From assembly GCF_965641715.1 (NCBI RefSeq), contig NZ_OZ282453.1: a DNA stretch of 64,000 nucleotides. One strand, 5' to 3'. Made by a program: the position numbers and the translations under genes. Shown here piece after piece: positions 44,847-61,643 of this stretch. The notes under the pieces are model-generated. The model worked only from the letters and a program-made list of their open reading frames with translations, searched no databases and was not told where the DNA came from. How positions within the stretch are numbered: the stretch's first letter is position 1; each line of letters opens with the position of its first letter. The DNA comes from Escherichia coli (GTDB lineage: Bacteria > Pseudomonadota > Gammaproteobacteria > Enterobacterales > Enterobacteriaceae).

Positions 44847-45263
44847 ATGAACGCAAAAGAAGAAGGCATTATCGACACATTAAAAAAAATATCAGAAGCG
44901 GAAGATGAAATGGCTAAAGATGACGTGAAGCGTAGCCAACATATGGCAGCACTTCACGCACTGACCATCGCAAAAATCACCGCTGACGCAGCCAAAATTA
45001 TTGAGGAACAGGGCAAAGAAATCGACACTCTTAAAACACAGTCAACAGTTGCAGCCATGAATCCGTCCAGCATTGGACGCCGCATTTACATTCTTGGTTC
45101 GGCAATAATGACGCAATACACCATTATTGCCGAACTGCACGGCAAATACCTGATAACGCCTTACCACACAAAAGAGTCAGAGCTTCTGACAAATCTCCGC
45201 CTGATAGAACGCTCTCAAGCTGTATTCATTGATGACGCGCAACGTGCCGTATTTAACGCATAG
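44847..45263 (+). CDS. Hypothetical prophage early protein (138 aa)
   Basis: ORF with RBS; no recognisable motif. Confidence 0.55.
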   Translation: MNAKEEGIIDTLKKISEAEDEMAKDDVKRSQHMAALHALTIAKITADAAKIIEEQGKEIDTLKTQSTVAAMNPSSIGRRIYILGSAIMTQYTIIAELHGKYLITPYHTKESELLTNLRLIERSQAVFIDDAQRAVFNA

Positions 45264-45286
45264 GGTTACTGGACAAAGGGGGCGCA

Positions 45287-45490
45287 ATGGCAATTAAGCA
45301 TTTTCCCGTCGTTCGCTTTACCTCCAGAGGGCGCGAATACGAGGTCGACGAACGCCTGATTACCACTATCGACAAACATCGTTCGGAAAAGGATGCACAC
45401 CACATCTACCTCACTGACGGCACTTACTTCTGCGCCACCAACGTGGCGCGGGTGAATCTTATCCGACAGGTACAGGAGCCACACAGATGA
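45287..45490 (+). CDS. Hypothetical prophage early protein (67 aa)
   Basis: ORF with AAGGGGG RBS; stop overlaps next start (ATGA). Confidence 0.5.
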   Translation: MAIKHFPVVRFTSRGREYEVDERLITTIDKHRSEKDAHHIYLTDGTYFCATNVARVNLIRQVQEPHR

Positions 45491-45753
45491 CCATTCTGGA
45501 CTACATCGCTACTCATCCGGGGTGTAGCGGCGGAGAGATCGCCGCAGCACTGAATACTCCAACCACAGCCATTAATGCTGAGTTACGCCAACTTTGGCGC
45601 GGCGGCTTAGTCATCAGAACAAACCGCAGCACAGGTGGTCGCGCTCGCAAAACTGGAGGCCAGGCTTCTTACCACGTAAACCCGATGCCGTTCGGGTGTA
45701 GCAATCCACTTACTCACATGTTTAACCAGCTACTGAAGGAAGCCAGAGCATGA
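45487..45753 (+). CDS. Small winged-helix-like DNA-binding protein (88 aa)
   Basis: MTILDYIATHPGCSGGEIAAALNTPTTAINAELRQLWRGGLVIRT... resembles a winged-helix recognition unit; translationally coupled to neighbours. Confidence 0.55.
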   Translation: MTILDYIATHPGCSGGEIAAALNTPTTAINAELRQLWRGGLVIRTNRSTGGRARKTGGQASYHVNPMPFGCSNPLTHMFNQLLKEARA

Positions 45754-46049
45754 GCACCATCAACCACCAGAAGCTACGCGAACTGGCATTTGCCCTGCAA
45801 CGAATGGCAACGCCTCAAAAATTACTGGCATTTCGCGCAATGCTCTCGCCGTCTGCTGTGCTGGCATTGCTGGATGAGCTGGAGCACGCCAGAACCACGG
45901 CTCCTGCCATTCGCCTGACGCTCCATCATGAAATCGCTGATTTCTGCGCGACATTGGAGGCGCCAGGCGAACCGGAAACGCCGGAAGCAATACAGCAAGA
46001 GCCGCTGCAACGCATTGACAAGGTTTTTGATTTTTTTCTGAACCAGTAA
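45750..46049 (+). CDS. Hypothetical prophage early protein (99 aa)
   Basis: ORF translationally coupled to upstream gene. Confidence 0.5.
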   Translation: MSTINHQKLRELAFALQRMATPQKLLAFRAMLSPSAVLALLDELEHARTTAPAIRLTLHHEIADFCATLEAPGEPETPEAIQQEPLQRIDKVFDFFLNQ

Positions 46050-46371
46050 GAAACCAGAGCATGCACACACAAAAAAACCGCTTGCCATGCCGCAATCAGT
46101 CAGGTTACATTTTCGCTGCACCTCATAAAACGGGTGCCGGGTTTCGCAGCCTGCTGACAACCAAAGCGCACAACCGCGCCAGCGGTTTTTTTGTGCGTAC
46201 TGTATTGCCACGTTTTTTTCGCGTCAGAATTATGGCGGGGCGTACGGGGCCGACTTCGGTCGGGCCGGGTTCTTTGGTTGCCGGTACTGCGAACCCCGTA
46301 CGTCTCGCCACCCACAGTTTCGCAGCTCTGGATGGTGAGTTTTCAAAACTTACAACCAAAGAGGCCACACC

Positions 46372-46602
46372 ATGGCAAACCGCAAACAGCACCGCGCTAT
46401 CGCGGAGCGTCGTCACATCCAGACTGAAATCAACCGCAGACTTTCCCGCGCATTCCGCGTCGCTAAAATCATGCACATCAATATGCTGCATGAGCGTAGC
46501 TGCGAACTTTCAAACCTCTACTCATCCGCTGTTTTCAGCTATCTGGCGGATGATCTGCGCGAGCTTCAACAGCTCATCCAGCAGCAAAACAAACTCCATT
46601 AA
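46372..46602 (+). CDS. Hypothetical prophage early protein (76 aa)
   Basis: ORF with AGAGG RBS; protein-like composition, unlike the overlapping 205-aa ORF in another frame. Confidence 0.5.
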   Translation: MANRKQHRAIAERRHIQTEINRRLSRAFRVAKIMHINMLHERSCELSNLYSSAVFSYLADDLRELQQLIQQQNKLH

Positions 46603-46674
46603 TTCCTGTTCCGGGCCTTTCCTGCACCTTGCGGCGGGAGGCCTTCGCACATCTGTAACAAGAGGATTGCCGCA

Positions 46675-47040
46675 ATGATTCTCGCCAACGACTTTCTTGA
46701 ATACCTGCTCAACACAGAGCGTGATCTTGCCGCTCGCGTACGTGATCGTTATGACATGTATCTGAAATCCCTGCCTGTACCGCAGCTCGCTGACGGAAAG
46801 ATTGTTATTGATGGTCGCTACATGATTGACAGCCACGAGGGAAATTACAGGCTTTACCGCATTGAAGGTGGCACCCCGTCCGTTATTGGCATTTACCAGC
46901 GCCCATCCTCTGCAATCGTCGATGTGATTGCCGACAGCATCCGCATCACACATCGCCATGCCGACACAGAAGACACCGTGCTGGAAATTCAGCGGCTGGC
47001 TGCCGTCTGCCGCGACACCCTGAATGGCATGACGAAGTAA
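46675..47040 (+). CDS. Hypothetical prophage early protein (121 aa), immediately upstream of replication gene A
   Basis: ORF with GAGGA RBS; occupies the position of P2 early/replication accessory genes. Confidence 0.55.
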   Translation: MILANDFLEYLLNTERDLAARVRDRYDMYLKSLPVPQLADGKIVIDGRYMIDSHEGNYRLYRIEGGTPSVIGIYQRPSSAIVDVIADSIRITHRHADTEDTVLEIQRLAAVCRDTLNGMTK

Positions 47041-47046
47041 ATCACT

Positions 47047-49869
47047 ATGACGGCAGAGTACATCAGGGACTGGCAACAACCGCGCCACGCAGTGGGACGT
47101 GAAGGAACGGGGATCCCCGTTCCTGAATCCGCGCTTTCCTCCTGGCTGGATGCCTACCGGGCAGAGAACGAGCGCCGCCAGGAAATGGCTGATGCGGCGT
47201 TCTCCGCCACGCCGCTGGGCAACCTGATTAATAAAAGCCTGGATGCACAGGAAAAACAGGACAAAACCATCACACTGGCAGGAGACGCCAGAAAACAGGT
47301 ACGCGGTGCGGTGGATGAAGCCATGGCCTCGCTGCGCCTGCTGCCGTCCTATCTGCGCGATCCGCTTATTCGCCACCTCTCCTTCCTGCGCAAAAAACAG
47401 GAAGCCGATCGCCGGAAAGGCAAAAAGAGCTGGCAGGCTGAACGCTACGCGCGCGGAACCCTGCGCAAAATATTCGAACGTCTGGACCGCACCGACCACC
47501 GCTGGCTGACACCGGGTTATCGCTCCCTTGCCGGACGCGAACGCCTGGATGATTTGCTTTACCTGCCGCAGCTCAACAAGCACCAGATACAGACGCTGGC
47601 CACCATGACGGCGGCGATGTTCAGCAGCACCTTCGAAAAACTCTGCGATGGCTTTGGCGCGACTGATGGCGAGCTGACCATGGATGTAACGCTGAAGGCG
47701 TATCAGATGCTGGCCCGCATGGCGTTACACCTGCACGCCATGCCTCCGCATTATGATGCACTGACAACAGACAAAGACCGGAGGAACGAACCGGACACGG
47801 AGCTGCTGCCGGGCGCAATCCTTCGCCTGACCTGTGCGGAATGGTGGAAACGCAAACTGTGGCTGTTACGTTGCGAGTGGCGGGAAGAACAACTCCGCGC
47901 CGCCTGTCTGGTTTCCAGAAAAACATCGCCCTATCTGAGCCAGGACGCGTTAAGCGAGTTTCGCGCACAGCGCGAGAAAACACGCGATTTCCTGAAAAGT
48001 TTCATGCTGGAAAACGAAGACGGGTTCACGATTGATCTCGAGACGGTGTATTACGCGGGAGTAAGTAACCCGGTTCATCGTAAGGCAGAAATGATGGCCA
48101 CCATGAAGGGGCTGGAACTTCTGGCCGAAGCCCGTGGCGACAAAGCGGTGTTTCTGACTGTCACCTGCCCGTCAAAATACCACGCCACAACAGAGAACGG
48201 TCATCCGAATCCCAAATGGAACGGGGCCACCATGCGCGACTCCAGCGATTACCTGGTTAACACGTTTTTTGCGGCGGTCCGCAAGAAACTGAACCGCGAC
48301 GGCCTGCGCTGGTATGGCATCCGCACGGTGGAGCCTCACCATGACGGCACCGTGCACTGGCATATGATGGTCTTTGCTCATCCGGAAGAAATCGACACCA
48401 TTGTGTCCCACACCCGCGATATTGCCATTCAGGAAGATCGTCACGAGCTGGGTGATGATATTACCCCACGCTTTAAGGCGGAGTACGTCGACGGCTCAAA
48501 AGGCACACCGACCAGCTACATCGCCACCTACATCGGGAAAAACCTGGACAGCCGTGCCGTGGATGGCATCGACCCGAAAACGGGCAAGCCACGCGTTGAC
48601 CACGAAACCGGAAAATCAATGGCCGAGAGCGTGGAACGCGCCATCGGCTGGGCGCGCCTTCATCGGGTCCGCCAGTTCCAGTTCTTTGGCATCCCCTCCC
48701 GTCAGGTGTGGCGTGAACTGCGCCGCCTTGCCAGCCAGATGGCTCGCAACCCGGAAGGACCGCAACGGCTGAAGGATGACGCAATGGACGCGGTTCTTGC
48801 TGCCGCTGATGCCGGATGTTTTGCCACCTACATAGAGAAACAGGGCGGCGTACTTGTTCCACGCAAGGACTACCTGATTCGCACCGCCTACGACCTCGCA
48901 GATGAGCTGAACGATTACGGTGAACAGAGCGTACAGATTTACGGGATCTGGTCACCGCTCATCGGGGAGTCTTCCCGCGTATGCACGCATCCGGACAACT
49001 GGAAGCTGGTAAGACGCAAACCGGAAGCGGAAGACAGCGCCCGCGAAAATGGTTTTGACCTTCAGGGCGGCCCTGCCGCCCCTTGGACTCGTGGCAATAA
49101 CTGTCCCCGTGTACAGGAAACAGGCAACAGCGGGACAGAACAGTCGAAAGAACGGCCAGCACCGTGGCCGCAGCTTCCTGACGGCGTTGACGTGAACGAA
49201 TGGATGCGCTCACTGAAACGGCACGAACGCCGGGCGCTGATGCGTTCGCTTCGTGACAAACAGGCAAAAAACAGCAGTGATGAAATGCAGAGCTGGACAC
49301 AGAGCCGCAAACAGCCACGGCCTTTGCCTGATAACCACGAATTACTCGCTAAAGAATGGCGGGAGTCTGCTGAATCTCTCGGCCTGCATATCGGTGAACA
49401 ACAGATGCAGCACCTGTTACGGGGCGGCAGTCTGTACGTTGACGGCAGCATCATTGCACCGCAGGGATTTGAAATTGTACGCAAACCGGATACCCGCCCG
49501 GACAGCCGAATCACGCAGCTCTGGCAGCGCCTGAGCCGTAATCATGGCGTAAGCAGCACGGAGATCCGCCATAACCCGGTCGCCAGCTATCTGGCACAGC
49601 TGGGGGCATCAGACCCTGAAGCCGCCGCACGCCTGGCATCCACACTTCAGCAGGACCAGAACACCATGAAAACACCCGTTACCGTGCTTTCTGACATGCT
49701 GCGCGCCATCCGCGACGCAGAGCACGCACAGAGAATCAGTGAAACCACTGAACGCGCCAGCCGCAAAGCAGACCTGCTGCGGGGTGGCCTGACCAGTGGA
49801 AACAAAAAACAGACAGAAACGGGATTCACAAATCCCATAAATGAGCAAAAAACGTGCCGCGATATATGA
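47047..49869 (+). CDS. P2 gpA-like rolling-circle replication initiator endonuclease (940 aa)
   Basis: HUH-type motif region ...GIRTVEPHHDGTVHWHMMVFAHPEE...; position after the early ORFs matches P2 gene A; unusually long C-terminal region. Confidence 0.85.
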   Translation: MTAEYIRDWQQPRHAVGREGTGIPVPESALSSWLDAYRAENERRQEMADAAFSATPLGNLINKSLDAQEKQDKTITLAGDARKQVRGAVDEAMASLRLLPSYLRDPLIRHLSFLRKKQEADRRKGKKSWQAERYARGTLRKIFERLDRTDHRWLTPGYRSLAGRERLDDLLYLPQLNKHQIQTLATMTAAMFSSTFEKLCDGFGATDGELTMDVTLKAYQMLARMALHLHAMPPHYDALTTDKDRRNEPDTELLPGAILRLTCAEWWKRKLWLLRCEWREEQLRAACLVSRKTSPYLSQDALSEFRAQREKTRDFLKSFMLENEDGFTIDLETVYYAGVSNPVHRKAEMMATMKGLELLAEARGDKAVFLTVTCPSKYHATTENGHPNPKWNGATMRDSSDYLVNTFFAAVRKKLNRDGLRWYGIRTVEPHHDGTVHWHMMVFAHPEEIDTIVSHTRDIAIQEDRHELGDDITPRFKAEYVDGSKGTPTSYIATYIGKNLDSRAVDGIDPKTGKPRVDHETGKSMAESVERAIGWARLHRVRQFQFFGIPSRQVWRELRRLASQMARNPEGPQRLKDDAMDAVLAAADAGCFATYIEKQGGVLVPRKDYLIRTAYDLADELNDYGEQSVQIYGIWSPLIGESSRVCTHPDNWKLVRRKPEAEDSARENGFDLQGGPAAPWTRGNNCPRVQETGNSGTEQSKERPAPWPQLPDGVDVNEWMRSLKRHERRALMRSLRDKQAKNSSDEMQSWTQSRKQPRPLPDNHELLAKEWRESAESLGLHIGEQQMQHLLRGGSLYVDGSIIAPQGFEIVRKPDTRPDSRITQLWQRLSRNHGVSSTEIRHNPVASYLAQLGASDPEAAARLASTLQQDQNTMKTPVTVLSDMLRAIRDAEHAQRISETTERASRKADLLRGGLTSGNKKQTETGFTNPINEQKTCRDI

Positions 49870-49945
49870 AGCGCGCACAAAACAGGCAAAAGCGGGATTT
49901 AAAAATCCTGTAAACGATTAATTAATCAACATAAGGAAAAGCGAC

Positions 49946-50905
49946 ATGAAAATTTGTATCGACGACGGCTCCACCAACATCAAGCTGGCATGGACTGAGA
50001 ACGGCGAACGCCGCAACGCCATCAGCCCGAACAGCTTCAAGTCGGAATGGTCTGCGCCGTTCGGTGGCTCGCAGCCCGCGAACTACATGCTTGATGGCGT
50101 GCGCTATGGTTTTGATCCGGTCAGCGATCGCTTTGTCCAGACGACCGACACGCAATACCAGTACAGCGATGTGAATGTCATTGCCATTCATCACGCGCTG
50201 GTCAAATCAGGCATCACGCCACAGGAGGTGGATGTGGTTGTCACCCTGCCATTGAGCGAGTATTTCGACACAAACGCACAGCCGGACATGGCCAACATCA
50301 GCCGCAAAAAAGCGAACGTTATGCGCCCGGTGGAGTACCAGAACGGCGAAACATTCACTATCCGTAACGTACGGGTTATGCCTGAATCCATTCCGGCTGG
50401 CTTTAAAGCACTGGCTGACATGAGTCCGCTTGAATCCCTGCTGATTGTGGATTTGGGCGGAACCACACTGGATGTGGCAAAGGTTCAGGGGCAACTGGCA
50501 GGTATCAGCCAGGTGTTTTGCGATCCACACGTAGGCGTTTCCCTGATGGCCGATGCCGTACTGTCGGTGATGGCCACTAACGGTATGCGTATCAGTCACC
50601 ACATCGCCAATACCATTATCGAACATCGCCATGATGAAGCCTGGTTGCGCCAGCACATCCACAATGACGCGCATTACGCCAGCCTGATGGCGGTTATTCG
50701 TGAAAAGGAAGAAACACTGAAACAACGCGTGATCCGCGCGCTGGCGGTTTTTTCGGGTTACGGGCGGGTGATGGTTGTCGGTGGCGGGGCGGAGATTGTG
50801 GCACCCGCTATCCGCGAAGCCTGCGGAGTTAATGCGACTTTCATCGCGGACGGGGTGCCACAGTTTGCTCTGGTTAATGGGCTGTACGCAATGGACAAGG
50901 AGTAA
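49946..50905 (+). CDS. ParM/StbA-like actin-fold ATPase (319 aa)
   Basis: N-terminus MKICIDDGSTNIKLAWTE...ISPNSFKSEW...YQYSDVNVIAIHHALVKSGI...LIVDLGGTTLDVA... matches the recalled plasmid R1 ParM phosphate-1/connect/phosphate-2 motifs; strong RBS. Confidence 0.8.
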   Translation: MKICIDDGSTNIKLAWTENGERRNAISPNSFKSEWSAPFGGSQPANYMLDGVRYGFDPVSDRFVQTTDTQYQYSDVNVIAIHHALVKSGITPQEVDVVVTLPLSEYFDTNAQPDMANISRKKANVMRPVEYQNGETFTIRNVRVMPESIPAGFKALADMSPLESLLIVDLGGTTLDVAKVQGQLAGISQVFCDPHVGVSLMADAVLSVMATNGMRISHHIANTIIEHRHDEAWLRQHIHNDAHYASLMAVIREKEETLKQRVIRALAVFSGYGRVMVVGGGAEIVAPAIREACGVNATFIADGVPQFALVNGLYAMDKE

Positions 50906-50909
50906 ACCA

Positions 50910-51221
50910 ATGACGACTCCAACCAGACGGATAAGTTTCTATCTGAAGCCCGCCGCCGTCAAGAACGAAGGTGAAGCATGCGCCTGGCTGGACAGCCTTA
51001 CACCAGAAGCGCGCAAAAGCGGCCAACGCGTGGCTTTTCTGGCCGGGCTGGCACTTCTGAAAATGAATCCGGCAGAGGCTTACCGACTGGCTGCATGGGC
51101 TGATGATGAAGCGTTATCAGTGACACAAACCAGGACAGAACGCCCCGCGTCACAGCCAGTATCAACCGCACAGATAACCAGTCAGATGGCCGGAAATATC
51201 CGGGCGTTATTTCCCGAATAA
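50910..51221 (+). CDS. ParR-like small DNA-binding protein (103 aa), partner of the ParM-like ATPase
   Basis: ORF 50775-51221 with probable start MTTPTRRISFYLKPAAV...; RRISFYLKP...RVAFLAGLALLKMNP...NIRALFPE parallels recalled R1 ParR (RRTIAFKLNP...RAALTAGLALYRQDP...ILRSLFPKE); 4-nt gap after parM-like gene. Confidence 0.7.
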   Translation: MTTPTRRISFYLKPAAVKNEGEACAWLDSLTPEARKSGQRVAFLAGLALLKMNPAEAYRLAAWADDEALSVTQTRTERPASQPVSTAQITSQMAGNIRALFPE

Positions 51222-51284
51222 CACAACATCAGGGCGCATCCGCCCTGATGACTTTAACCCGGGAACATAAACAAGGGGGACACA

Positions 51285-51620
51285 ATGCAACGCATTGACA
51301 GAGAAAAAGCGCAGCGACTGATTGAGCGGATGGAAGCGCTGGCGAAAGAAGAAAATGTCAACATCCAAAAAATAGCTGAATGTGGCCAGATAGTTCTTCG
51401 TCGTGAAAAAGACCTCAAACAACTGATGTCTGGCGAAACCAGCAAAACATGGACTTCAGGTGAGGAGACGATTTATTGCAGCTTCTGCAATAAATCCCAG
51501 TACGAAGTCACAAAGGTGATTGCCGGACCGTCTGTTTACATCTGCAATGAGTGCGTTGATTTGTGCAATGAAGTTATCAGGAGAGAAGTGACAGACCATG
51601 AAGAAAAAACGCATGAATGA
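51285..51620 (+). CDS. Small protein with C-terminal ClpX-type C4 zinc-binding domain (111 aa)
   Basis: [40 protein letters not shown] is near-identical in pattern to the ClpX N-terminal ZBD ([39 protein letters not shown] as recalled); N-terminal 60 aa predicted helical; own AAGGGGGA RBS. Confidence 0.8.
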
Positions 51621-51786
51621 CGAATTTGACGGCTTTTAATTTTATCGGGGCGCACTGTCGCCCTGCATGGAGAAAAACAATAAAAAAGATGAATAACTGC
51701 TCATGTCAGACGCGCTGCGGGCAAGTCTGGCACCCTGCCCTGTCTCCGCAAAGGCTGTTGTCTTAACACGACAGAGTATGCCAGCA

Positions 51787-52194
51787 TTAAATATAATCTT
51801 CTTCGTAGTCGCTGATTAATTCATTGCCATAATCAGACAGCAATTTCAAAGCAAAGGTAACTTCCTCAAGGGTAGCTATCCCCATTGCTGAAAACACCGT
51901 TAATTTAACCAGCAGCAGGGAGTTTGAAAGTTCGGAAGAGTTCATCATTAAAAATATTGATGCAGCCTGAAAAGCTGTGCGTTTATTCCCATCATGAAAG
52001 GCATGAGCCTTGGCTATACCAATCAAATACATAGCAGCCAGAGCATGAATATCATCAACCCCTTCATAGTAGTGTAGTGTCCTGACGCGATTTAAAGCAC
52101 CTTCAAGTAGCCCGTCATTGGCATTTCCGCTCTGGGGTAAAGTTTCAGCATGGATACGTTCTACTTGTTCTTTTGACAAAAACACTATGTCCAT
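51787..52194 (-). CDS. Doc-like (Fic/Doc family) toxin
   Basis: 135 aa ORF with Doc-type Fic motif HAFHDGNKRTA (HxFx[D/N]GNKR); start overlaps stop of upstream antitoxin-like gene. Confidence 0.8.
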   Translation of the reverse strand: MDIVFLSKEQVERIHAETLPQSGNANDGLLEGALNRVRTLHYYEGVDDIHALAAMYLIGIAKAHAFHDGNKRTAFQAASIFLMMNSSELSNSLLLVKLTVFSAMGIATLEEVTFALKLLSDYGNELISDYEEDYI

Positions 52195-52550
52195 CAGTTA
52201 TCCTCAAGCTTTTTAATGATATCCGCATGTTTTTCTCTTGTACGCTTCATTGCATCTTCAAAAGACAATCCTTTTTTTCTCTGTGCGACAAGAGCTGGAT
52301 GACGTTTTTCCAGATCTCTCACTGCATTTATTAAGAGTGGTTGCTTCATTTTGTTTATTTGATCCCGCAGTTTTTTGGTTTTGCCAAGGACAGCCCGTAT
52401 TTCAGGACTAAGATCAGAACCAGCAAGAACAACATCCTTCCCTCCCTGCGCCGTGATAACGACACTGCCACCGGAAGAAAGGTAATCCAGAATTTCACTC
52501 AGGTTCTCACGAAATTCATCATCAGTTACAGTTTTCATATTCATTTCCAT
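52194..52550 (-). CDS. Phd/YefM-like antitoxin with extended C-terminal region (118 aa; start ambiguous among three ATGs)
   Basis: N-terminal MKTVTDDEFRENLSEILDYLSSGGSVVITAQGGKDVVLAGSDL resembles the Phd/YefM fold; basic C-terminal 60 aa; overlaps doc-like gene (ATGA arrangement). Confidence 0.7.
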   Translation of the reverse strand: MEMNMKTVTDDEFRENLSEILDYLSSGGSVVITAQGGKDVVLAGSDLSPEIRAVLGKTKKLRDQINKMKQPLLINAVRDLEKRHPALVAQRKKGLSFEDAMKRTREKHADIIKKLEDN

Positions 52551-52617
52551 TATGCACGCCCATAACGTAAGTATAACGGCTTGTTGGGCAGTAATAACAC
52601 CGCCATATTTTCATTTT

Positions 52618-52652
52618 ATACACCGCACAATAGTGCACAAATTTGCACAATT
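52618..52652 (-). promoter_or_regulatory. Candidate promoter/operator of the phd/doc-like operon with three iterated GCACAA sites at 10-bp spacing
   Basis: Plus strand CGCACAATAGTGCACAAATTTGCACAAT; minus strand reads TTGTGCAAATTTGTGCACTATTGTGCG followed by TATAAAAT -10-like element, then the antitoxin start. Confidence 0.5.
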
Positions 52653-53074
52653 TTTTTGAACAACTTTTTACCCTTCCGGCCCGCGTGGCGACTGGATCCG
52701 TCAAGGATCCGTGCGTGCACAAAAAAACGCGTTTTTTCTGCGCGCAGGTGACGGGGGAACAGCCCGCGTTTCAGGGGGTAAATAGCATTCCCTGAACGAT
52801 GTCGCAGCGACACAACAGAATGGCTGTATTTCTCACACTGAGCGTGAAAAAGGCGTGAGGGCTTTTGATTTGATGGGGTGACAGATAAGGCCGTCAAAAT
52901 CGCACTGAGGCGGCAAGAACATGCAGTCAACGCGGTGGGATTGCGTAAGAGCCTGACCGTCGATGATGGCGATAAGCTGGAAGACGTCGTGAAATTATCT
53001 GATTGATACAGGAGCTGGAGAGTCGGGGCATAAATTTTTTATGCCCCGGCGAAGCAGCAGACAAGCGAAGCGCG

Positions 53075-54121
53075 TCAGGATGTGGGCTGGGTGTCCAGCA
53101 GTGCGTAAGGGTTAAAGCGGATCACCTCTTCGCCAAGCCAGTCATTGATATGCTTCATGGCCTCCATGACGGGCATCAGCTCGTTAATTGCGTAAACCCG
53201 CGCTGCCTTCTCCACATCACCAAACGCACTTTTTTCGCCCGGCATCGCCCCCATCAGTTGCGGCGGAACGCGGTGCGCAGCCAGCACATCATCACGGGAT
53301 GCCGCCTTAACATTCATGAACTCATCCTTTGCGGTGATCTGCTGGAACGGCAAAATTTGCACACCTTCTTTGCCCCCGTTGGGCGCGTGAATGAGCACGT
53401 TTTTAAATGCACCACCACCACGCGCACCCTGTAGCGTTTCCTTCAGGGAGTCCATGCTTTCGCGGTTTACCTGCGCTGCACCGATGTAGATGATGCACCC
53501 GGCGTGGGATCCATTGTCGTAGTACAGTTTTCTGAACATGTCCGCCGAATGAGACAGGCTGGCCGAGAGTAATGCGCCAAGATATTCCGGCATGCCGTAA
53601 ATTTCCTGGTTAATGTCCGGATTCATCAGGTGGCACACTTTGCCAGGGCGAAACTGAAACGCGTCCTTGCCATCCTGCACATACCACCATGATTCAAGAT
53701 CGCTTCCGCGTCGCATGTATTTCGCCAGTGCGTGCCGTAATTTAAGTGGTTCGCCGAGCATATTGCTCCGAAGCTCAAGGAATGCGTTACCGAACACAAA
53801 CCAGTCCAGCGCCAGCGCCGAGAAATCCTGCCGGGAAAGCAGCGGGTGCGGGATGTAGCAACCGAGCAATACATTGCGCTTAAAGTAAAGCGCAGACTGA
53901 TGCCAGGACGTTTGCCGGGCGGCTCTTGCCAGACCGTACCAGTCCACCGGGGTTTCATACCACCGCCCGTTATCAGCACAGTACATATTGTCCAGCAGGT
54001 CATGCCCGGTCAGGCGGTAAGGACCATCAAATGTGAATGCACTGAGCGACGATTCTTTCCTGAGCGCATCAGCGAGATCAATGCGTGAACTCATGCGCAC
54101 TTTTTTATTTTTTCTGCTCAT
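53075..54121 (-). CDS. Portal protein (P2 gpQ-like)
   Basis: 348 aa ORF in the conserved position and orientation of P2 Q; start overlaps the stop of the terminase gene. Confidence 0.9.
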   Translation of the reverse strand: MSRKNKKVRMSSRIDLADALRKESSLSAFTFDGPYRLTGHDLLDNMYCADNGRWYETPVDWYGLARAARQTSWHQSALYFKRNVLLGCYIPHPLLSRQDFSALALDWFVFGNAFLELRSNMLGEPLKLRHALAKYMRRGSDLESWWYVQDGKDAFQFRPGKVCHLMNPDINQEIYGMPEYLGALLSASLSHSADMFRKLYYDNGSHAGCIIYIGAAQVNRESMDSLKETLQGARGGGAFKNVLIHAPNGGKEGVQILPFQQITAKDEFMNVKAASRDDVLAAHRVPPQLMGAMPGEKSAFGDVEKAARVYAINELMPVMEAMKHINDWLGEEVIRFNPYALLDTQPTS

Positions 54122-55872
54122 CAGAACTCCATAACCGTGAAACGCTCGTTTTCTCCTTCGCCGCCAATTGGTTCGTTAATGACAGCAAGCATGGTTGCCC
54201 ACGCAAGGTCGCCGTGGCTGATCCCCCTCGCGCGGTCCGTTTCGTAAGTGATAAAGCCGCCCGGTGTTTTCACCTTACGCACGGCGTTAAAGGCCGCGAC
54301 CAGCTCGCGTTCGGCGCGATCGTATTCCCACCGCCCGGCACGCATTATTTGCAGCATTTTCAGTACCAGCGACCGTTTTGATGACAGCGTGAAGGTGTAC
54401 GGAATAGCGGCAGGGAAAAACCGTTTCACTATCTGATAAACAGCCTCCCCGTTCCCGCCCGTCACATCAATGCCGATGTGTTCCACGTTGTAGCGACACG
54501 TGAACTCTTCAATGACTCTGGCCTGTTCTTCAAACTCCAGCCCCTGAACGCGTCGCGTCTCCACCGTTCGAAAACGGCCACCAGGAACAGCCGGAGGAAC
54601 CACCACGGACACCGCGCCACTGTCGCCGTTTCCACTGCTGCCGTTTGCGTCATACCCAATCCATACCGGACGATTCCCCATCGGGCGGGGAGCAAAAGGT
54701 TTCCAGTCTTTCCAGTCGTCGTATCCGTCAACACCGCAGCCAATCAGGATATTCAGGTTAAATGCCGATTCCCCTTCGCGGACAAACTCACACATATAGA
54801 GATTGCGGAACTCGTCTTCGGTGTTTTCATCACGAATTTCATCAATATCGGTGTGTTTCCAGCCGTGATTAACCACATCTTCCAGCGTGACAATTTGCCG
54901 CCACGTCCGGTCGGGGCAGATAAGCCCGTTATGCAGCGTTTTCCAGTCCACAGAAAAACGCTGGCGTTTATGCGCGGCCTTTTTCTCGTTCCAGCGGTCG
55001 CCGTTCCAGTAGACGTATGCCTCGTGCGTTTCGGTTGATGGCGTGGAGAAGTAGGTGCGTCGCAGCCCGCTGAGGGTTGCCATAGCGCCAGCCACCTTGC
55101 GCAGTTCAGCAAAGCGACTGACCCAGAAAAATTCATCAAAATAAAAATTGCCTGTGTAGGACTGTGCCGTCGCAGCAGAAGTGCCGAGAAAATGCAGCTC
55201 TGCGCCGTTGGAGAGGATGATTTTATCGCCCCCTTTCAGCTCCACATCAACTTCAGATGCAGCCTTCTGAATAATGCTTTTAAACTGGAACGCCTGACGA
55301 CGCGACGCAGACAAAAAAATCTGGTTACGCTGGTAAGGTTGCGCCACATCGTCACGCAGCGCCATCAGCAGTGCTTCCTGTGCAAAATACCAGGTCGCCC
55401 CAATCTGTCGGGATTTCAGGATCATCCTGTTACGTATCCCGGCTTCCCTGCAAAGGGTCAGGGAGTCAAACCAGCCCCGCTGATGCCACTCCAGCCTGCT
55501 GATGATTTTTTCCCGCAGTGCGGCAATCTGTTCCGGCGTGAAATGATTTTTAAGCTTTTTCGCCCGGCCTTTCTTTCCTGTGGCCGTCGCATCCGGCTGG
55601 CCATCATGCAGTTTTTTAAGCTGCCGGGTCAGCAGGTCTATTTCCTTAAAGTCACCGCCTGTTTTATTCTGTTTTTCAGTAAGCTGGATGAGGCGCGCAT
55701 CGATGGACTGCGTGACACGCTGCACGGGTGGCGTTTCATCCCACTGGTCGCGTTTTTTCCACGCATAAATCGTGTTCGGGTTTATTCCCATCAGACGTGA
55801 TATTTCAGCGGGCGGATAACCCTGCCAGTAAAGTTGTCGCGCACGCTGGCGCACAAAAGCGTCCTGAATCAT
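54121..55872 (-). CDS. Terminase large subunit, ATPase (P2 gpP-like)
   Basis: 583 aa ORF MIQDAFVRQRARQLYWQGYPPAEISRLMGINPNTIYAWKKRDQWDE... with N-terminal HTH and ATPase/nuclease regions. Confidence 0.92.
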   Translation of the reverse strand: MIQDAFVRQRARQLYWQGYPPAEISRLMGINPNTIYAWKKRDQWDETPPVQRVTQSIDARLIQLTEKQNKTGGDFKEIDLLTRQLKKLHDGQPDATATGKKGRAKKLKNHFTPEQIAALREKIISRLEWHQRGWFDSLTLCREAGIRNRMILKSRQIGATWYFAQEALLMALRDDVAQPYQRNQIFLSASRRQAFQFKSIIQKAASEVDVELKGGDKIILSNGAELHFLGTSAATAQSYTGNFYFDEFFWVSRFAELRKVAGAMATLSGLRRTYFSTPSTETHEAYVYWNGDRWNEKKAAHKRQRFSVDWKTLHNGLICPDRTWRQIVTLEDVVNHGWKHTDIDEIRDENTEDEFRNLYMCEFVREGESAFNLNILIGCGVDGYDDWKDWKPFAPRPMGNRPVWIGYDANGSSGNGDSGAVSVVVPPAVPGGRFRTVETRRVQGLEFEEQARVIEEFTCRYNVEHIGIDVTGGNGEAVYQIVKRFFPAAIPYTFTLSSKRSLVLKMLQIMRAGRWEYDRAERELVAAFNAVRKVKTPGGFITYETDRARGISHGDLAWATMLAVINEPIGGEGENERFTVMEF

Positions 55873-56026
55873 TGCTCCCCCTGAGTAATTACAGGAAGAT
55901 TACCCGCGCGCGAAACCGTTCTCCTTAACCCCCTGTTCTGGCCATTTTCTTACAACAAAAGCCCTTTGTATCAGCCTGTTACGCTTTGCCATCATGACTG
56001 AAGAACCAGTCAGAGGGGCAAAAACT

Positions 56027-56863
56027 ATGGCTAATGAAAAAAAGACATCACGCAAAAAGTTTCGCGTGGCTGTCTCCGGATCAACTGTTGATGGCCGCGA
56101 AATCAGTCCGGTGCATCTGCGTGAAGCTGCTGAGAACTTCGACCCGGATGTTTACGCTGCCCGCGTGAACGTTGAGCACTATCTCTCGCCATGCCCGTCA
56201 AGCGAATTTTCCGCAATGGGCGATGTCACCGCACTGAGTACGGAAGACATTACGGAAGGTCCGCTGGCCGGGCGTACTGCGCTGTATGCAGAAATCGAAC
56301 CGACCGAGCGCATGAAGAAGCTTGTCGCTGACGGCAAGAAAATTTATTCCAGTATCGAACTGCACCCGCAGTTCTCCGTTAACGGGCGCGCCTATCTGGT
56401 CGGGCTGGCGATGACCGACACCCCGGCAAGCCTGGGCACTGAACGTCTGAAATTCACGGCACAGCAACGTCAGGCAGTGATGAAATTCAACAGTGTCCAG
56501 GGTGAGGCTCCGCTTATCTCCGAAGCCATCGAGTCTGAAATCATCGAAATGGCAGAACAACGCCAGGAAGAAGGCACCCAGTGGTTTAACCGCGTAATGG
56601 GAATTATTGGCCGTGGCCGCAAAGCGGATGACGCCAGTTTTTCCCGTATTCAGGAAGCGGTGGAAGGCGTCGCAACGTCACAGGCCGACATTATCGACCG
56701 TTTTAATGCACTGGAAGCCCGCCATAAGCAGGACCGTCAGAAAATCACGTCACTGACCACAGAGCTGACAGCACTGAAGGAAAAACTGCGCACGCAGGAC
56801 GGCGATCCGCAGAACCGGTTCACCGCAACGGGCGCAGCCTCCGACCAACTGGCTGACTTCTGA
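56027..56863 (+). CDS. Capsid scaffolding protein (P2 gpO-like)
   Basis: ORF 55994-56863, likely start MANEKKTSRKKFRVAVSGSTVDGREISPVHLREAAENFDPDVYAARVNVEHY...; resembles P2 O N-terminal region. Confidence 0.88.
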   Translation: MANEKKTSRKKFRVAVSGSTVDGREISPVHLREAAENFDPDVYAARVNVEHYLSPCPSSEFSAMGDVTALSTEDITEGPLAGRTALYAEIEPTERMKKLVADGKKIYSSIELHPQFSVNGRAYLVGLAMTDTPASLGTERLKFTAQQRQAVMKFNSVQGEAPLISEAIESEIIEMAEQRQEEGTQWFNRVMGIIGRGRKADDASFSRIQEAVEGVATSQADIIDRFNALEARHKQDRQKITSLTTELTALKEKLRTQDGDPQNRFTATGAASDQLADF

Positions 56864-56886
56864 TAAGACAAAGGAGCAAAATTTTT

Positions 56887-57939
56887 ATGAATCTGGTGAT
56901 GTCAGATAATGCCCGTAACAAGCTGGGCTGCTACATGACGCAGCAGGCGTCGCTTAACAATATCCCGGTTTCTGCGCTGGTATCGCGATTTACCGTCAAT
57001 CCATCGGTACAACAGCGTTTTGAAAACGCTTCAAAGGAAAGTACCGAATTTACGAAAAGAATTAACGTAATCGGTGTAACTGACCAGAAAGGCGAAAAAG
57101 TTCTCCTGGACACCACCGGGCCGATTGCGCGCACGAATACCAGTTATGACGGCACAGATCGCCGTAATCCGATTAACGCTGTCGATATGAAGGCTCGTCA
57201 GTACCAGTGTGAACAGGTGAACTACGACACCTTTATTTCGTATCCGAAGCTTGATGCCTGGGCGGCTCACAGCGATTTTCAGTCGCGCATCAGCACACAG
57301 ATTGCCCGGCAGGTGGCGCTTGACCGCATCATGATCGGCTTTAACGGCACATCACACGCGGAAAAATCCAATTTCAGCACCAACAAGCTGCTTCAGGACG
57401 TTAACGTGGGCTGGCTGGAGCACATCAGAACCGATGCCAGTGAACGCGTAATGAATGACGTGACGCTGACTTCCCGCAACATGGACAACACCGTGGCGCA
57501 CGCGGGTAAGTATGCGAACGCTGATGCACTCGTACAGGACGCGCGCTCATCCCTGCTGGATGAATGGCACAAGGAAGCAGACGACCTCGTGGTGATTATG
57601 GGGCGCAACCTGTTTAACTCGCTGCGTCTGCCCGTTCTGAACAGCATCAGCGGCCAGAATCCCAATGCGGAATTACTCGCCGGACAGCTCATCCTGTCAT
57701 CGCGCACCATTGGCGGGCTGGATGTATTCCTTGCGCCGTTCTTCCCGGATGCAACGATGCTGATTACCTCATTCAACAACCTGTCAATTTACTGGCAGAG
57801 AGGCTCAATGCGTCGCCTGATGAAAGACGAGCCGGAATACAACCGCATCGCCACTTACCAGTCCATCAATGACGCTTATGTCGTTGAAGACTATGGCAAG
57901 TGCGCGATGGTCACTGGCCTGAAGTTCGCCGACAGCTAA
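56887..57939 (+). CDS. Major capsid protein (P2 gpN-like)
   Basis: 350 aa ORF; ...IMIGFNGTSHAEKSNFSTNKLLQDVNVGWLEHIRTDA...LITSFNNLSIYWQRGSMRR... parallels P2 N. Confidence 0.92.
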   Translation: MNLVMSDNARNKLGCYMTQQASLNNIPVSALVSRFTVNPSVQQRFENASKESTEFTKRINVIGVTDQKGEKVLLDTTGPIARTNTSYDGTDRRNPINAVDMKARQYQCEQVNYDTFISYPKLDAWAAHSDFQSRISTQIARQVALDRIMIGFNGTSHAEKSNFSTNKLLQDVNVGWLEHIRTDASERVMNDVTLTSRNMDNTVAHAGKYANADALVQDARSSLLDEWHKEADDLVVIMGRNLFNSLRLPVLNSISGQNPNAELLAGQLILSSRTIGGLDVFLAPFFPDATMLITSFNNLSIYWQRGSMRRLMKDEPEYNRIATYQSINDAYVVEDYGKCAMVTGLKFADS

Positions 57940-57984
57940 TCAACTCACGGCGGGCATCATGCCCGCCTGTAACGGAGAGAAAGA

Positions 57985-58785
57985 ATGATTACCCCTGCAC
58001 AGCAACACTGGCAGAACGTGATGGCGCAGCGCGCAGGCCGGGCGAATGAAGGCGTGGATCACGCCGCACGTACCGCGCATGAAGAGGTGCTGTATCGTCT
58101 GCGTCTGGCACAGGCCCGACTTAAGGGCGTACAGGCCAGAAGCGCCAAAGCCGCCATCAAAAAAGAGTTGTTACCGGACTTTTCTGGCTGGATTGAAGGA
58201 ACGCTGGAGGCTGACGGCGGGCAGCAGGATGAGGTGATTGCCACGCTGATGGTGTGGGCGATTGACTGTGGCGATCTTCCGCTGGCATTGCGTATTGGTG
58301 CGTATGTGGTCCGTCACAACCTCATCATGCCGGATAACTTTGGCCGTACTGCTGCCACAGTGCTGACCGAAGAAATCTGCAACCCGGTACTGACGCAGGC
58401 CGGGACGGATGCCGACGCGGATTTGTCCGCCTTTATCGAACCACTGGACACCCTCCGGGAGATTGTCACCGACCAGGATATGCCGGACGAAGTACGCGCC
58501 AAATTATGCAAGGCGTGCGCCTTTGCCCGCCGTGGCCTGAGCGATGCGGACAGCATGGCCCTGTCACTGAAGCTGCTGCGCGAAGCGATGCACCTGAACC
58601 CGAACGCAGGTGTGAAACGCGAGATTGCAACCCTTTCCCGCGCCCTGAAAAAAGCCGATTCCGCAGCCGCCCCAGATGACGCCAGCGCACAGCAGGCGCA
58701 GGACGAAAGCAGCAAAAGTAAAAAGACAACGCGGAAGCCTGCAACACGAAAAACCACCGCGACGCAGAAGGCGAAGCGCGTTTAA
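57985..58785 (+). CDS. Terminase small subunit / endonuclease (P2 gpM-like)
   Basis: 266 aa ORF; ...DMPDEVRAKLCKACAFARRGL... matches P2 M motif DMPDEVRAKL; basic C-terminal tail. Confidence 0.9.
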   Translation: MITPAQQHWQNVMAQRAGRANEGVDHAARTAHEEVLYRLRLAQARLKGVQARSAKAAIKKELLPDFSGWIEGTLEADGGQQDEVIATLMVWAIDCGDLPLALRIGAYVVRHNLIMPDNFGRTAATVLTEEICNPVLTQAGTDADADLSAFIEPLDTLREIVTDQDMPDEVRAKLCKACAFARRGLSDADSMALSLKLLREAMHLNPNAGVKREIATLSRALKKADSAAAPDDASAQQAQDESSKSKKTTRKPATRKTTATQKAKRV

Positions 58786-58877
58786 CGACTGACCCCGTCA
58801 GCGGGCGGCGTGCACGGTGTTCCGGTTTGACTCCGTGACCGTTTACACCGCGCACCCACCGCCCGATTTTTTCAGGA

Positions 58878-59381
58878 GTGAACCCCATGAGTATGGTTGC
58901 CAGAACCAACCCCGGCCCCGCAGAGGACGACATCACCGATACCGATGATGGTGATACCCGTATTTCAGCGGGCGCATTCTGGCCGGATATTGTGCTGCGT
59001 GAGCTGCGTCTGGCGATACGACTGCCGGGCCGTGTGACCACCTCCCGCCTGCTGCATACCGCCACCGGGGCCGTGGCACACGTTACCCGCGAGCTGGAAG
59101 CGTGGCAGCAGGAACAGCAGGCGGCTGGCCACCAGACGCTGGCCGATGTTCCGGCACCCGTAATTAACGGAGAAAGCGTCAATCTCTGGCACTGGCGCAA
59201 TGCCGTTTATACCGCCACACGCGCCCTGATTCTGGAGCGTTACCGCGATGCGGACACAACGGATAAGGGCGACCGCCGGGCGGACGCACTGGATATACAG
59301 ACATCGGATTTGTGGCGCGATGTGAGCTGGGCCATCTCTGACATTCTGGGACGACCGCGAATCTTTGCGGAGTTGTGCTGA
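58878..59381 (+). CDS. Head completion/stabilisation protein (P2 gpL-like)
   Basis: 167 aa ORF in conserved position between M and X. Confidence 0.85.
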   Translation: MNPMSMVARTNPGPAEDDITDTDDGDTRISAGAFWPDIVLRELRLAIRLPGRVTTSRLLHTATGAVAHVTRELEAWQQEQQAAGHQTLADVPAPVINGESVNLWHWRNAVYTATRALILERYRDADTTDKGDRRADALDIQTSDLWRDVSWAISDILGRPRIFAELC

Positions 59382-59581
59382 TGAAAGTGAAGGCACTGGA
59401 AGGCGACACCGTGGATTCGCTCTGTTTCCGGTACTACGGCACGACGCAGGGCGTCACCGAAAAGGTGCTGGATGCCAACCCCGGACTCTGTCAGCAGGTA
59501 TTTCTGGACCCCGGGCAGGACGTGGAGATGCCGGAGCCGGAGAAGAAGAAACGAGAAATGATTCAGTTGTGGGGGGAGTAG
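59381..59581 (+). CDS. Tail protein X (P2 gpX-like)
   Basis: ATG overlaps L stop (TGATG); MKVKALEGDTVDSLCFRYYGTTQGVTEKVLDANPGL... parallels P2 X (MKTFALQGDTLDAICVRYYGRTEGVVETVLAANPGL). Confidence 0.88.
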   Translation: MKVKALEGDTVDSLCFRYYGTTQGVTEKVLDANPGLCQQVFLDPGQDVEMPEPEKKKREMIQLWGE

Positions 59582-59583
59582 TA

Positions 59584-59907
59584 GTGAGCACTATTCAAAC
59601 AGGGATCACAGAGCAGGTTATTGCGTGGCTCTTTGACCACCTGCCAACGGTGTATGCAGCAGGCGCGGCAGTCAGCATTTCCGCGCTGATGAGTCTTTAT
59701 GACGGACGAACGCTGGTTCAGACCGTAACGGGATCGCTGGCGTGCGGCGTTCTTGCCATGGCCGTGGCCGGGTCGTTGCGCTTCTTCGGAGTTCCTGAAG
59801 ATGCCGTGACGTTTTTCGGCGCATCTATCGGTTTTATGGGCGCAGAAAAAGCACGCGACAAGATCATTGCCGCCTTTAACCGCATAACCCAAAAGGGAGA
59901 TGAATAA
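59584..59907 (+). CDS. Holin (P2 gpY-like)
   Basis: GTG start after GGGGGGAG RBS; hydrophobic product with predicted TM helices (…AAGAAVSISALMSLYDG…LACGVLAMAVAGSLRFFGV…). Confidence 0.75.
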   Translation: MSTIQTGITEQVIAWLFDHLPTVYAAGAAVSISALMSLYDGRTLVQTVTGSLACGVLAMAVAGSLRFFGVPEDAVTFFGASIGFMGAEKARDKIIAAFNRITQKGDE

Positions 59908-59961
59908 GTCGCAGGCTTAAAGCCGGTAATCACCATAAAAATCATTCACAGAGGTGACGAA

Positions 59962-60507
59962 ATGAAATCGAAAGACGAAATTTTTGATGTCGTTCTTGGC
60001 AAAGAAGGCGGCTACGTCAATCACCCGGATGACAGAGGCGGTCCGACAAAATGGGGCATCACTGAAAAGGTGGCACGGGCGCACGGATACCGTGGCGATA
60101 TGCGTGATTTAACTCGCGGACAGGCACTGGAAATCCTTGAAGCTGATTACTGGTACGGACCGCGTTTTGATCAGATAGCGAAGCTGTCCCCGGATATTGC
60201 CGCAGAACTGTGTGACACCGGAGTAAATATGGGGCCGTCTGTGGCAACCAGAATGCTTCAGCGCTGGCTGAACGTATTCAATCAGGGCGGGAAACTGTAT
60301 CCCGATATGGACACGGACGGACGCACTGGCCCACGCACGATTAACGCATTGCGTGCATATCTGGAAAAACGCGGTCGGGACGGCGAGATGGTGATGTTGT
60401 CTGCAATGAACTGTACGCAGGGCGAACGCTATCTGGAGCTGGCAGAGAAACGCGAGGCTAACGAGTCGTTTGTCTATGGCTGGATGAAAGAACGTGTAGC
60501 CCTGTAA
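59962..60507 (+). CDS. Endolysin, GH108-type muramidase with C-terminal peptidoglycan-binding region
   Basis: N-terminal EGGYVNHPDDRGGPTKWGIT is the characteristic GH108 signature; occupies the lysozyme (K) position of the P2 lysis cassette. Confidence 0.8.
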   Translation: MKSKDEIFDVVLGKEGGYVNHPDDRGGPTKWGITEKVARAHGYRGDMRDLTRGQALEILEADYWYGPRFDQIAKLSPDIAAELCDTGVNMGPSVATRMLQRWLNVFNQGGKLYPDMDTDGRTGPRTINALRAYLEKRGRDGEMVMLSAMNCTQGERYLELAEKREANESFVYGWMKERVAL

Positions 60508-60547
60508 CCTCATGAACTGCAACAAGTGAATAACGAGGACAACAACC

Positions 60548-61015
60548 ATGCTGAAAACTGATTCCCTGCGTGAAGCCATGACCCGTTCATGCCGATGGTG
60601 TCAGGCCAACCCGGAAAAATTCACCATTTTCGTGGAGAGCGGCAACATTGAAACGACCGGAGAAACGCCCTCGTTTGTTTACCGCTATCAGATGGTGATG
60701 TTTGTCATGGATTACGCCGGAGAGCTGGACGACCTCACGCTGCCGCTGCTGGCGTGGTTATCCGAAAATCAGCCACAGTTGTTGCTTAATCCGGAGTGTA
60801 ATCAGGACATCAAATTTTCCGCCGTTATCAATGACGATGACAGCGCCGATCTCCTGTTTACGCTCCCCCTGCGGGAACGCGTTCGCATCACGCGCAACAG
60901 TCAGGGGACACCGCAGGCAGAACACCTGCCGGAGCCAAAACCCCGCCTGCCCTCCTCCGAAGGCGACTGGTCGCATGTATTCCAGGATGTGACGTGGGGT
61001 GAAAGCGATGGATAA
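60548..61015 (+). CDS. Tail completion protein (P2 gpR-like)
   Basis: 155 aa; MLKTDSLREAMTRSCRWCQANPEKFTIFVESGNIETTGE... parallels P2 R (MLKPDSLRRALTDAV...). Confidence 0.85.
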   Translation: MLKTDSLREAMTRSCRWCQANPEKFTIFVESGNIETTGETPSFVYRYQMVMFVMDYAGELDDLTLPLLAWLSENQPQLLLNPECNQDIKFSAVINDDDSADLLFTLPLRERVRITRNSQGTPQAEHLPEPKPRLPSSEGDWSHVFQDVTWGESDG

Positions 61016-61643
61016 GGCATTCACCCGCGTGGATGAAACCTTTGAGGCCATCCGCGACAGCCTGAATCAGCAGGCCATCAATAACATCGCCAGAAAGCTG
61101 GCACAGGATTTACGCCGCGCCCAGCAGGCGCGCATCCGGTCACAGAAAGCGCCGGACGGGACCGCATGGACACCACGCAGACGCCGCGTAACCCGGATAC
61201 AGGAGCGCATTCGCTTTATCTGGAATAACGAAGCACGCACGCTGAAAAACTGGCATCACGACACGGGGAAATACGGGCGAACCATCACCGGGTGGGATGA
61301 GGATAAAAACAGCATCCGCACGTTTTACCGGGATGACATCGACCGCTTTCTGGAAATACGCACCCGGCGCATCAACCAGGACAGCACCAGGCGCGTCCCC
61401 ATGTTCGTAAAACTGCGCACCGCCCGCTACCTGAAAGCCCGTGCAGATGCTTCCGGTGTGACGGTGGGTTACAGCGGCGTGGCCGCACGTATTGCACGCG
61501 TTCATCAGTTCGGTGAGCGCGATCAGGTTGCGCCGGGCATTTTCACCGATTACCCGGTACGTGAGCTGCTGGGTATCAGCCAGGCAGATGAGCGCCTGAT
61601 TTATAACACGGTGCTGGGCCGGATTGCGGAGGCTGTACGGTGA
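60999..61643 (+). CDS. Virion morphogenesis / tail completion protein (P2 gpS-like)
   Basis: 214 aa ORF overlapping the end of R; conserved position. Confidence 0.75.
   Translation: MKAMDKAFTRVDETFEAIRDSLNQQAINNIARKLAQDLRRAQQARIRSQKAPDGTAWTPRRRRVTRIQERIRFIWNNEARTLKNWHHDTGKYGRTITGWDEDKNSIRTFYRDDIDRFLEIRTRRINQDSTRRVPMFVKLRTARYLKARADASGVTVGYSGVAARIARVHQFGERDQVAPGIFTDYPVRELLGISQADERLIYNTVLGRIAEAVR

Follow-up and report, generated by a model that had tools for sequence, protein, structure and literature searches.

Loss of the spanin genes from the lysis cassette of a Xuanwuvirus-type prophage of Escherichia coli

The lysis cassette of a P2-like prophage of Escherichia coli, found in a stretch of 64,000 nucleotides that was analysed as a whole and is referred to here as the window, is very probably a derived allele of the Xuanwuvirus (P88/phiSM-type) cassette from which the spanin genes have been deleted, and the holin and endolysin that are left would now bring about lysis in two steps, without active disruption of the outer membrane. 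For lysis of Gram-negative hosts, the action of spanins is viewed as an obligatory third step; the evidence that they are needed beyond the laboratory comes mostly from engineered mutants of lambda. The finding is a modest one, a variant of a known lysis cassette, and its main value lies in its use as a natural spanin knockout.

Layout of the cassette and its closest relatives

The genes of the cassette and the features surrounding them are collected in Table 1. A preliminary description of this DNA had read a holin, a GH108-signature endolysin and, after a 40-bp gap, the homologue of P2 gene R, and both the coordinates and the domains are borne out by the open reading frames (ORFs) and the Pfam matches. 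Against TIGR01594 (holin_lambda), the holin scores 51 bits, slightly below the cutoff. The endolysin, rightly set apart in that description from a conventional K-type lysozyme, matches PF05838 at 93.4 bits (cutoff 21.2) and PF09374 at 88.1 bits (cutoff 24.6), contains an EGGY motif and, as read from its sequence, is soluble, with neither an N-terminal transmembrane segment nor a signal sequence. Its protein is 87% identical to Sen1395 (PDB 6V3Z) and 68% identical to TtsA (6V40), with which it has a two-domain architecture in common. Sen1395 is a GH108 muramidase of solved structure that hydrolyses ordinary peptidoglycan (PMC6996933), and by analogy with its biochemistry, the window enzyme would be an N-acetylmuramidase that cuts peptidoglycan. 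Downstream, the remnant of lysC overlaps the start of R and contains the ribosome-binding site of that gene, GAGGA, 8 nt 5′ of its ATG; R itself has the same length in spanin-bearing relatives, and S is followed by V, W, J and I. A scan of the cassette (59300-61100) for promoters and terminators returned nothing above chance, and the deletion junction creates no terminator-like site.

Table 1. Features of the lysis cassette, its neighbouring genes and the attachment sites of three spanin-less prophages (window coordinates)
Feature	Position	Strand	Evidence or remark
Gene L	58878-59381
Tail protein X	59375-59581	+	PF05489, E=7e-20; gene directly 5′ of the lysis cassette
Holin, 107 aa, GTG start, lambda S family	59584-59907	+	PF05106, 69 bits; PHROG 126 holin/anti-holin
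Gap, 54 bp	between holin (ends 59907) and endolysin (begins 59962)
GH108 endolysin with PG_binding_3, 181 aa	59962-60507	+	PF05838 (Glyco_hydro_108) and PF09374
Putative recombinant 3′ patch of the endolysin gene, lambdoid-prophage GH108 type	60398-60507	+	Identity drop against Xuanwuvirus relatives
Gap, 40 bp	60508-60547		Endolysin stop to R start
9-nt filler CCTCATGAA	60508-60516	+	At the deletion junction
lysC remnant, final 14 codons and stop, LQQVNNEDNNHAEN	60517-60561	+	Alignment to the lysC 3′ end in relatives
Tail completion protein R, 155 aa, intact	60548-61015	+	PF06891, 136 bits
Virion morphogenesis/tail completion protein S	60999-61643	+	PF05069
Attachment site, window prophage	adjoins pheL-pheA		As UMNF18
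Attachment site, RM10740 prophage	between pdxB and flk
Attachment site, ETEC1730 prophage	between btuC and ihfA

The preliminary description had also set this cassette against that of P2. The differences it named are real, but the comparator was not well chosen, as DNA comparison places the prophage in Xuanwuvirus (P88/phiSM-like, Peduoviridae), a genus in which lysA is normally absent and some members carry a GH108 enzyme. The window DNA is 96-98% identical to that of Citrobacter phage Shae_phiSM (OR565851), and 96.3-96.7% identical over 52612-64000 when the deletion is set aside; 100-nt windows flanking the cassette are collinear with the relatives and 97-100% identical to them. Outside the endolysin, the region also matches phage P88, whose match is confined to the DNA outside that segment (74% coverage), and about 1,100 E. 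coli prophages. The order of the cassette in the genus is X, holin, endolysin, lysB/lysC and R, without lysA, and because both of the genus members inspected have no gene between the endolysin and lysB, the missing lysA is the normal state. Two endolysin modules alternate in the genus: UMNF18 and P88 have an M15 peptidase, Shae_phiSM and PG20180057 the GH108 enzyme that is also found in the window. Judged against these relatives, neither the GH108 endolysin nor the absence of lysA is unusual, and the sole real anomaly is the loss of lysB and lysC, a derived deletion and not another cassette design.

The two GH108-bearing relatives, Shae_phiSM and PG20180057, are collinear with the window from the capsid genes through the baseplate, have the same holin, R and S, and encode the same endolysin with 4-5 amino-acid differences. 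[quoted passage not shown] The holin gene is intact, and a single holin protein accession, WP_000104344.1, is common to the spanin-less prophage of strain RM10740 and the spanin-bearing PG20180057. UMNF18 and P88 have the same late operon, holin family and X-holin-endolysin-(lysBC)-R order as the window, and the left junction of the UMNF18 prophage, adjoining pheL-pheA, is that of the window, with 99.3% identity to it over 36000-46000; the UMNF18 endolysin, however, is annotated as an M15 metallopeptidase and not as a GH108 enzyme, and both lysB and lysC are present.

The deletion junction and the search for spanins

Between the endolysin and R, the relatives hold 498 bp (PG20180057) or 510 bp (Shae_phiSM) as against 9 bp in the window, a net 489-501 bp of additional DNA that is annotated as a DUF2570 protein and an Rz1-like LysC. 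The window is collinear with both relatives up to about 60400 and then again from 60517. Their LysC matches Pfam PF23793 at 51 bits (cutoff 27), and their LysB, of 131 aa, matches DUF2570 weakly and below the cutoff; NCBIfam returned no match for either protein. Where lysC of PG20180057 ends in LQRLNNEDNNHAEN and a stop, the window retains LQQVNNEDNNHAEN and a stop, so that the whole of lysB and the first 82 of the 96 lysC codons have been lost and 9 bp of filler gained. As the window retains the last 14 codons of lysC, the spanin-less state is to be read as a derived deletion, and the same remnant argues against the opposite course, in which spanin-bearing forms would have arisen by insertion into a spanin-less ancestor; that the ancestor bore spanins is, on these alignments, certain. 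In 7 of 13 spanin-less loci, an A/G polymorphism at 60524, the only one at the junction, restores the lysC codon CGA. The recurrence of this junction in 13 independent assemblies, five complete RefSeq chromosomes among them, leaves practically no room for the idea that the missing spanins are an artefact of assembly or sequencing.

The way in which the junction arose may be read from the end of the endolysin gene, whose identity to the Xuanwuvirus relatives falls from 98-100% to 87-90% between about 60398 and the stop codon. The counterparts of this 3′ stretch in GH108 genes from phage-plasmids and lambdoid prophages (L008-L010) share 93-100% identity with it, and positions 60442-60481 match the lambdoid gene of L008 without a single difference. 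With almost all of its substitutions synonymous and four amino-acid changes, the patch thus derives from a functional gene rather than from decay. The filler CCTCATGAA is absent from the spanin-bearing relatives and resembles the bases that follow the stop of lambdoid GH108 genes (ACTCATCGAA in L008). A closer donor of the patch was sought, and the best lambdoid GH108 genes of E. coli reached 93-95% identity over 60407-60497, none of them with the filler after its stop. The lambdoid-type patch points to a recombination accident. In the ancestor, X, the holin gene and the GH108 endolysin gene were followed by lysB, for the i-spanin, by an overlapping lysC, for the o-spanin, whose end lay within R, and by R itself. 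In one event, the final ~110 nt of the endolysin gene would have been swapped for the corresponding, homologous part of a GH108 gene from a lambdoid prophage and an illegitimate rejoining would have taken place 31 nt upstream of the R start, with the loss of lysB and most of lysC. We infer, in other words, a homologous exchange within the endolysin gene that was resolved by an illegitimate join.

The absence of lysA, lysB and lysC between the endolysin and R, and of any spanin ORF in any frame of 59900-61000, had both been claimed in the preliminary description and both withstood a wider search. [quoted passage not shown] In tblastn searches of the window, LysB of the nearest relative gave no match better than E~1, and its LysC matched the C-terminal remnant alone (60517-60558, E=1.7e-4). 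A lipobox scan from every start in six frames over 41.9-64 kb returned only short antisense chance ORFs inside other genes, while in the relative PG20180057, used as a positive control, it recovered LysC. The RM10740 prophage is 99% identical, and the same scan of its other 13 kb returned nothing; no embedded or relocated spanin gene was found in the prophage part of the window or in the rest of that prophage. A unimolecular spanin (T1 gp11 type) would combine an N-terminal lipobox with a C-terminal transmembrane domain in a single ORF, and the late operon has no lipobox ORF on its coding strand.

These searches bear on the idea that the outer membrane is disrupted from elsewhere, be it by a relocated or unrecognised gene, by a peptide of disruptin type read in an overlapping frame or by the spanins of a co-induced prophage acting in trans. 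Precedents exist, as about 13-15% of phages of Gram-negative hosts are without recognisable spanins, phiKT employs a 56-aa cationic peptide (the disruptin gp28) in their place, and in LambdaSo nested ORFs concealed the spanins; the persistence of the allele also suggests a tolerable cost. We nevertheless consider such compensation improbable. Apart from the negative lipobox scans, the cassette has no unassigned coding space, since its intergenic gaps measure just 54 and 40 bp. Small plus-strand ORFs embedded in other genes (e.g. 59472-59561 and 59984-60112) lie in DNA that is near-identical in spanin-bearing relatives and are therefore not specific to the spanin-less allele. Comparison of 10 spanin-less loci with spanin-bearing relatives showed no consistent gain of any gene, and each of the five complete carrier genomes holds only one copy of the R/lysis region.

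Distribution of the allele and state of its carriers

A search of 5,426 complete E. coli genomes found the junction in five, those of RM10740, from a feral pig, and of four Belgian enterotoxigenic (ETEC) strains from pigs. In the complete genomes, R is found at 1168 places and lysBC at 1163, a difference of 5, and this retention of lysBC beside R implies that spanins are strongly selected in the genus and that their loss should cost fitness. In a larger collection, the exact endolysin protein of the window occurs on 325 contigs, as against 823 and 224 for the two main spanin-bearing alleles, and in all ten retrieved places with this exact endolysin allele, R begins 40 bp after it. All 13 spanin-less loci examined have one common junction, which argues that the deletion happened once. 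The DNA around it is far from uniform: there are 39 variable sites from X to S, the flanks are mosaic, and one locus (L015) changes to a Shae-like haplotype within R. Most of this flank diversity has been imported from functional relatives by recombination. The spanin-less prophages moreover occupy three attachment sites (Table 1) with unrelated integrase modules, and the cargo that lies between their portal and partition genes comprises six different modules or more. The loci point to one old deletion of ~0.5 kb, the product of which has by now reached hundreds of E. coli assemblies. PGAP annotates the spanin-less loci correctly and leaves the deletion unflagged.

Over 59300-61700, the window is 100% identical to RM10740. 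The two prophages cannot be equated as wholes, as a blastn search with the entire window matches RM10740 over 45276-64000 only (99%), and the host flank and integrase of the window, beside pheA, are of the UMNF18 type; because the match is confined to that part, the downstream lesions of RM10740 are not assignable to the window genome. An apparent truncation of gpD in RM10740, suggested by an 801-bp annotation, was also discarded, the ORF being intact at 37398-38639 of the RM10740 sequence and the same short PGAP call being found in UMNF18.

Insertion sequences, in turn, have interrupted essential tail genes in both kinds of complete-genome carrier inspected: ISCro1 lies in the tail-fibre gene H of RM10740, and in ETEC1730, one of the four Belgian pig strains, gpD is interrupted by IS66 and an early gene by IS100. 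At least some of the spanin-less copies thus appear to be dead prophages. Such lesions would fit a scenario in which the spanin loss is itself one lesion of a decaying, non-productive prophage that has spread vertically and by gene conversion, with no infectious phage involved, as would the small number of known carriers and their association with pigs. E. coli genomes hold up to six related places each, which makes conversion between prophages possible, no phage isolate carries the junction, and pattern scans for it gave no match in IMG/VR, JGI metagenome contigs or GTDB species representatives, although these scans say little, since a control pattern for the spanin-bearing allele had only four matches in IMG/VR. 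On balance, we find decay plausible but the less likely explanation. The insertions differ between lineages and are therefore later than the deletion, all window genes from int to I are full length (up to position 64000, where the window ends), and the late genes, among them that for a tail fibre of 548 aa, are intact at 9 of 10 further loci. One junction in combination with three attachment sites and integrases, six or more cargo modules and mosaic flanks is also more easily explained by a mobile phage. It is possible, and we put it forward tentatively, that a P2-like temperate phage has given rise, once only, to a natural sublineage without spanins which continues to infect E. coli and to circulate in it. 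Were this so, either active disruption of the outer membrane would be dispensable for this phage in the gut or an unrecognised compensating function would exist.

Predicted course of lysis and comparison with known systems

In the spanin-deleted cassette, the lambda-S-type holin would permeabilise the inner membrane at a set time, and the soluble Sen1395-like muramidase would then escape and degrade the peptidoglycan. With no active disruptor of the outer membrane supplied by the prophage, induced cells would be expected to round up and to let virions out only upon failure of the outer membrane through shear or osmotic stress. Lambda Rz/Rz1 nulls form spherical cells bounded by the outer membrane and lyse only with shear or at low concentrations of divalent cations, and in shaken cultures, spanins are unnecessary for lysis unless millimolar divalent cations are added (PMC6139136). 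By likeness to these nulls, the window allele would impose a conditional defect in lysis and no block on phage production, a reading which is consistent both with the conservation of lysBC in the genus and with the survival of one deletion lineage. A mild cost of this kind, we propose, may have allowed the allele to persist and to spread by recombination among related prophages.

A holin paired with a peptidoglycan hydrolase and no spanins also makes up the Type 10 secretion systems (T10SSs) of Salmonella (PMC13284979), and the window endolysin resembles the hydrolases of this family, TtsA included. That the pair has been repurposed as a T10SS-like module for non-lytic release is nonetheless highly implausible. 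Both genes belong to the virion's late operon, where X and R flank them, and have next to them neither a cargo toxin nor a chitinase and no separate promoter signal in 59300-61100; the capsid and tail genes have been kept, and the holin is identical to that of spanin-bearing phages. The enzyme, moreover, is nearer to Sen1395, whose specificity is general and which cannot substitute for TtsA (PMC6996933).

The allele provides a clean natural spanin knockout with near-isogenic spanin-bearing relatives, among them an isolated phage, Shae_phiSM. Such a pair could be tested for the fitness cost of spanin loss in a temperate phage and would also permit screening for compensating functions. More generally, where a spanin seems to be missing from a P2-like prophage, relatives at the level of the genus should be compared before a novel lysis design is proposed.

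Among known systems, P2 (Y, K, lysA, lysB, lysC) likewise has its lysis cassette between X and R. P2 lysC ends out of frame inside R (PMC3091744), and the lysC genes of the window's relatives, which start in another frame inside lysB and end inside R, have the same arrangement. The window departs from P2 in its GH108 endolysin, in the lack of the antiholin gene lysA and in the deletion of lysB and lysC. With Sen1395 and TtsA it shares a hydrolase paired with a holin in the absence of spanins, but its enzyme is encoded inside a phage late operon without secretion cargo. [quoted passage not shown] The closest functional parallel is with the lambda Rz/Rz1 nulls, which also combine a holin and an endolysin without a spanin and serve as the model for the predicted phenotype. 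Those nulls, however, are laboratory knockouts, whereas the window allele is a natural deletion of single origin that has survived and been disseminated among wild E. coli.

Mosaic structure and insertion history

The prophage is mosaic: window 1-45275, host flank included, resembles the typical Xuanwuvirus prophage UMNF18, and window 45276-64000 resembles RM10740, a carrier that also lacks the spanin genes. UMNF18 is matched by the host flank, the integrase and the early region, with an identity of 99.3% over 36000-46000, and this UMNF18-type left part adjoins pheL-pheA. Position 45276 and everything after it match RM10740 best (99.0%), whose prophage is located between pdxB and flk. The IS insertions of the annotated spanin-less carriers RM10740 and ETEC1730 are independent of each other.

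Features of the window prophage, spanin-less carriers and related lambdoid-type cassettes
Element	Feature	Coordinates
Window	ParM and plasmid-stability (ParR-like) protein	49946-51221
Window	Variable cargo slot: ClpX-type zinc-finger protein and Doc (Fic)/Phd toxin-antitoxin pair	51285-52550
RM10740 (L004)	Tail-fibre gene H interrupted by ISCro1 (IS66 family)	28121-30736
ETEC1730 (L005)	IS100 in DUF4761 early gene; IS66 in gpD	5031-6832 and 33301-35889
pTD225C4_47	Overlapped i-/o-spanin-like pair downstream of GH108 endolysin: one protein of 92 aa has a TMD, the other, of 69 aa, has the lipobox LIASC	
TUM9812	Small TM proteins and 60-aa lipoprotein (LLVGC) downstream of GH108 endolysin	

Partition genes, cargo and annotation

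The partition genes, which are unusual for an integrated P2-like prophage, are also encoded by all Xuanwuvirus relatives inspected. Between them and the portal gene sits a variable slot, occupied in other spanin-less loci by DUF4760, DUF3800, Ead/Ea22 or unknown genes, and this varying gene content gives the slot the look of a hotspot for cargo or defence genes.

In the PGAP annotation, gpD is split into a CDS of 801 bp, named 'VgrG/Pvc8 family', and a pseudogene of 93 bp (L004; L011 5647-6447), although the actual ORF is longer than this call and intact (L004 37398-38639), and the record of the spanin-positive Citrobacter phage Shae_phiSM labels the gpD ORF 'ogr' and the sheath gene 'late control gene D'. 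Within gene S, 271 bp (window 61258-61528) have a 97% match in an unannotated region of the 254-kb Aeromonas phage AP1 (MT713136), an odd finding in a jumbo phage of Aeromonas that may be due to contamination or a chimeric assembly.

The endolysin and its lambdoid relatives

The closest lambdoid phage records with the endolysin type of window 59962-60497 are Rac-SA53 and SerU-LTIIb (KU052037 and KU052038; ~80% identity), and the gene pool of such phages is probably the source of the recombinant patch at the 3′ end of the endolysin gene. The LTIIb in the latter name hints at a connection with the LT-II enterotoxin. Related GH108 endolysins in lambdoid and phage-plasmid cassettes are followed by downstream genes of their own (L009 2598-3000; L010 2742-3264).

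The window endolysin (59962-60507) is 87% identical to the GH108 muramidase Sen1395 (PDB 6V3Z) and 68% identical to TtsA (6V40), the muramidase of typhoid-toxin secretion. The patch changes only residues 147, 149, 175 and 181, all four in the C-terminal, substrate-binding half, which in TtsA and Sen1395 determines specificity.
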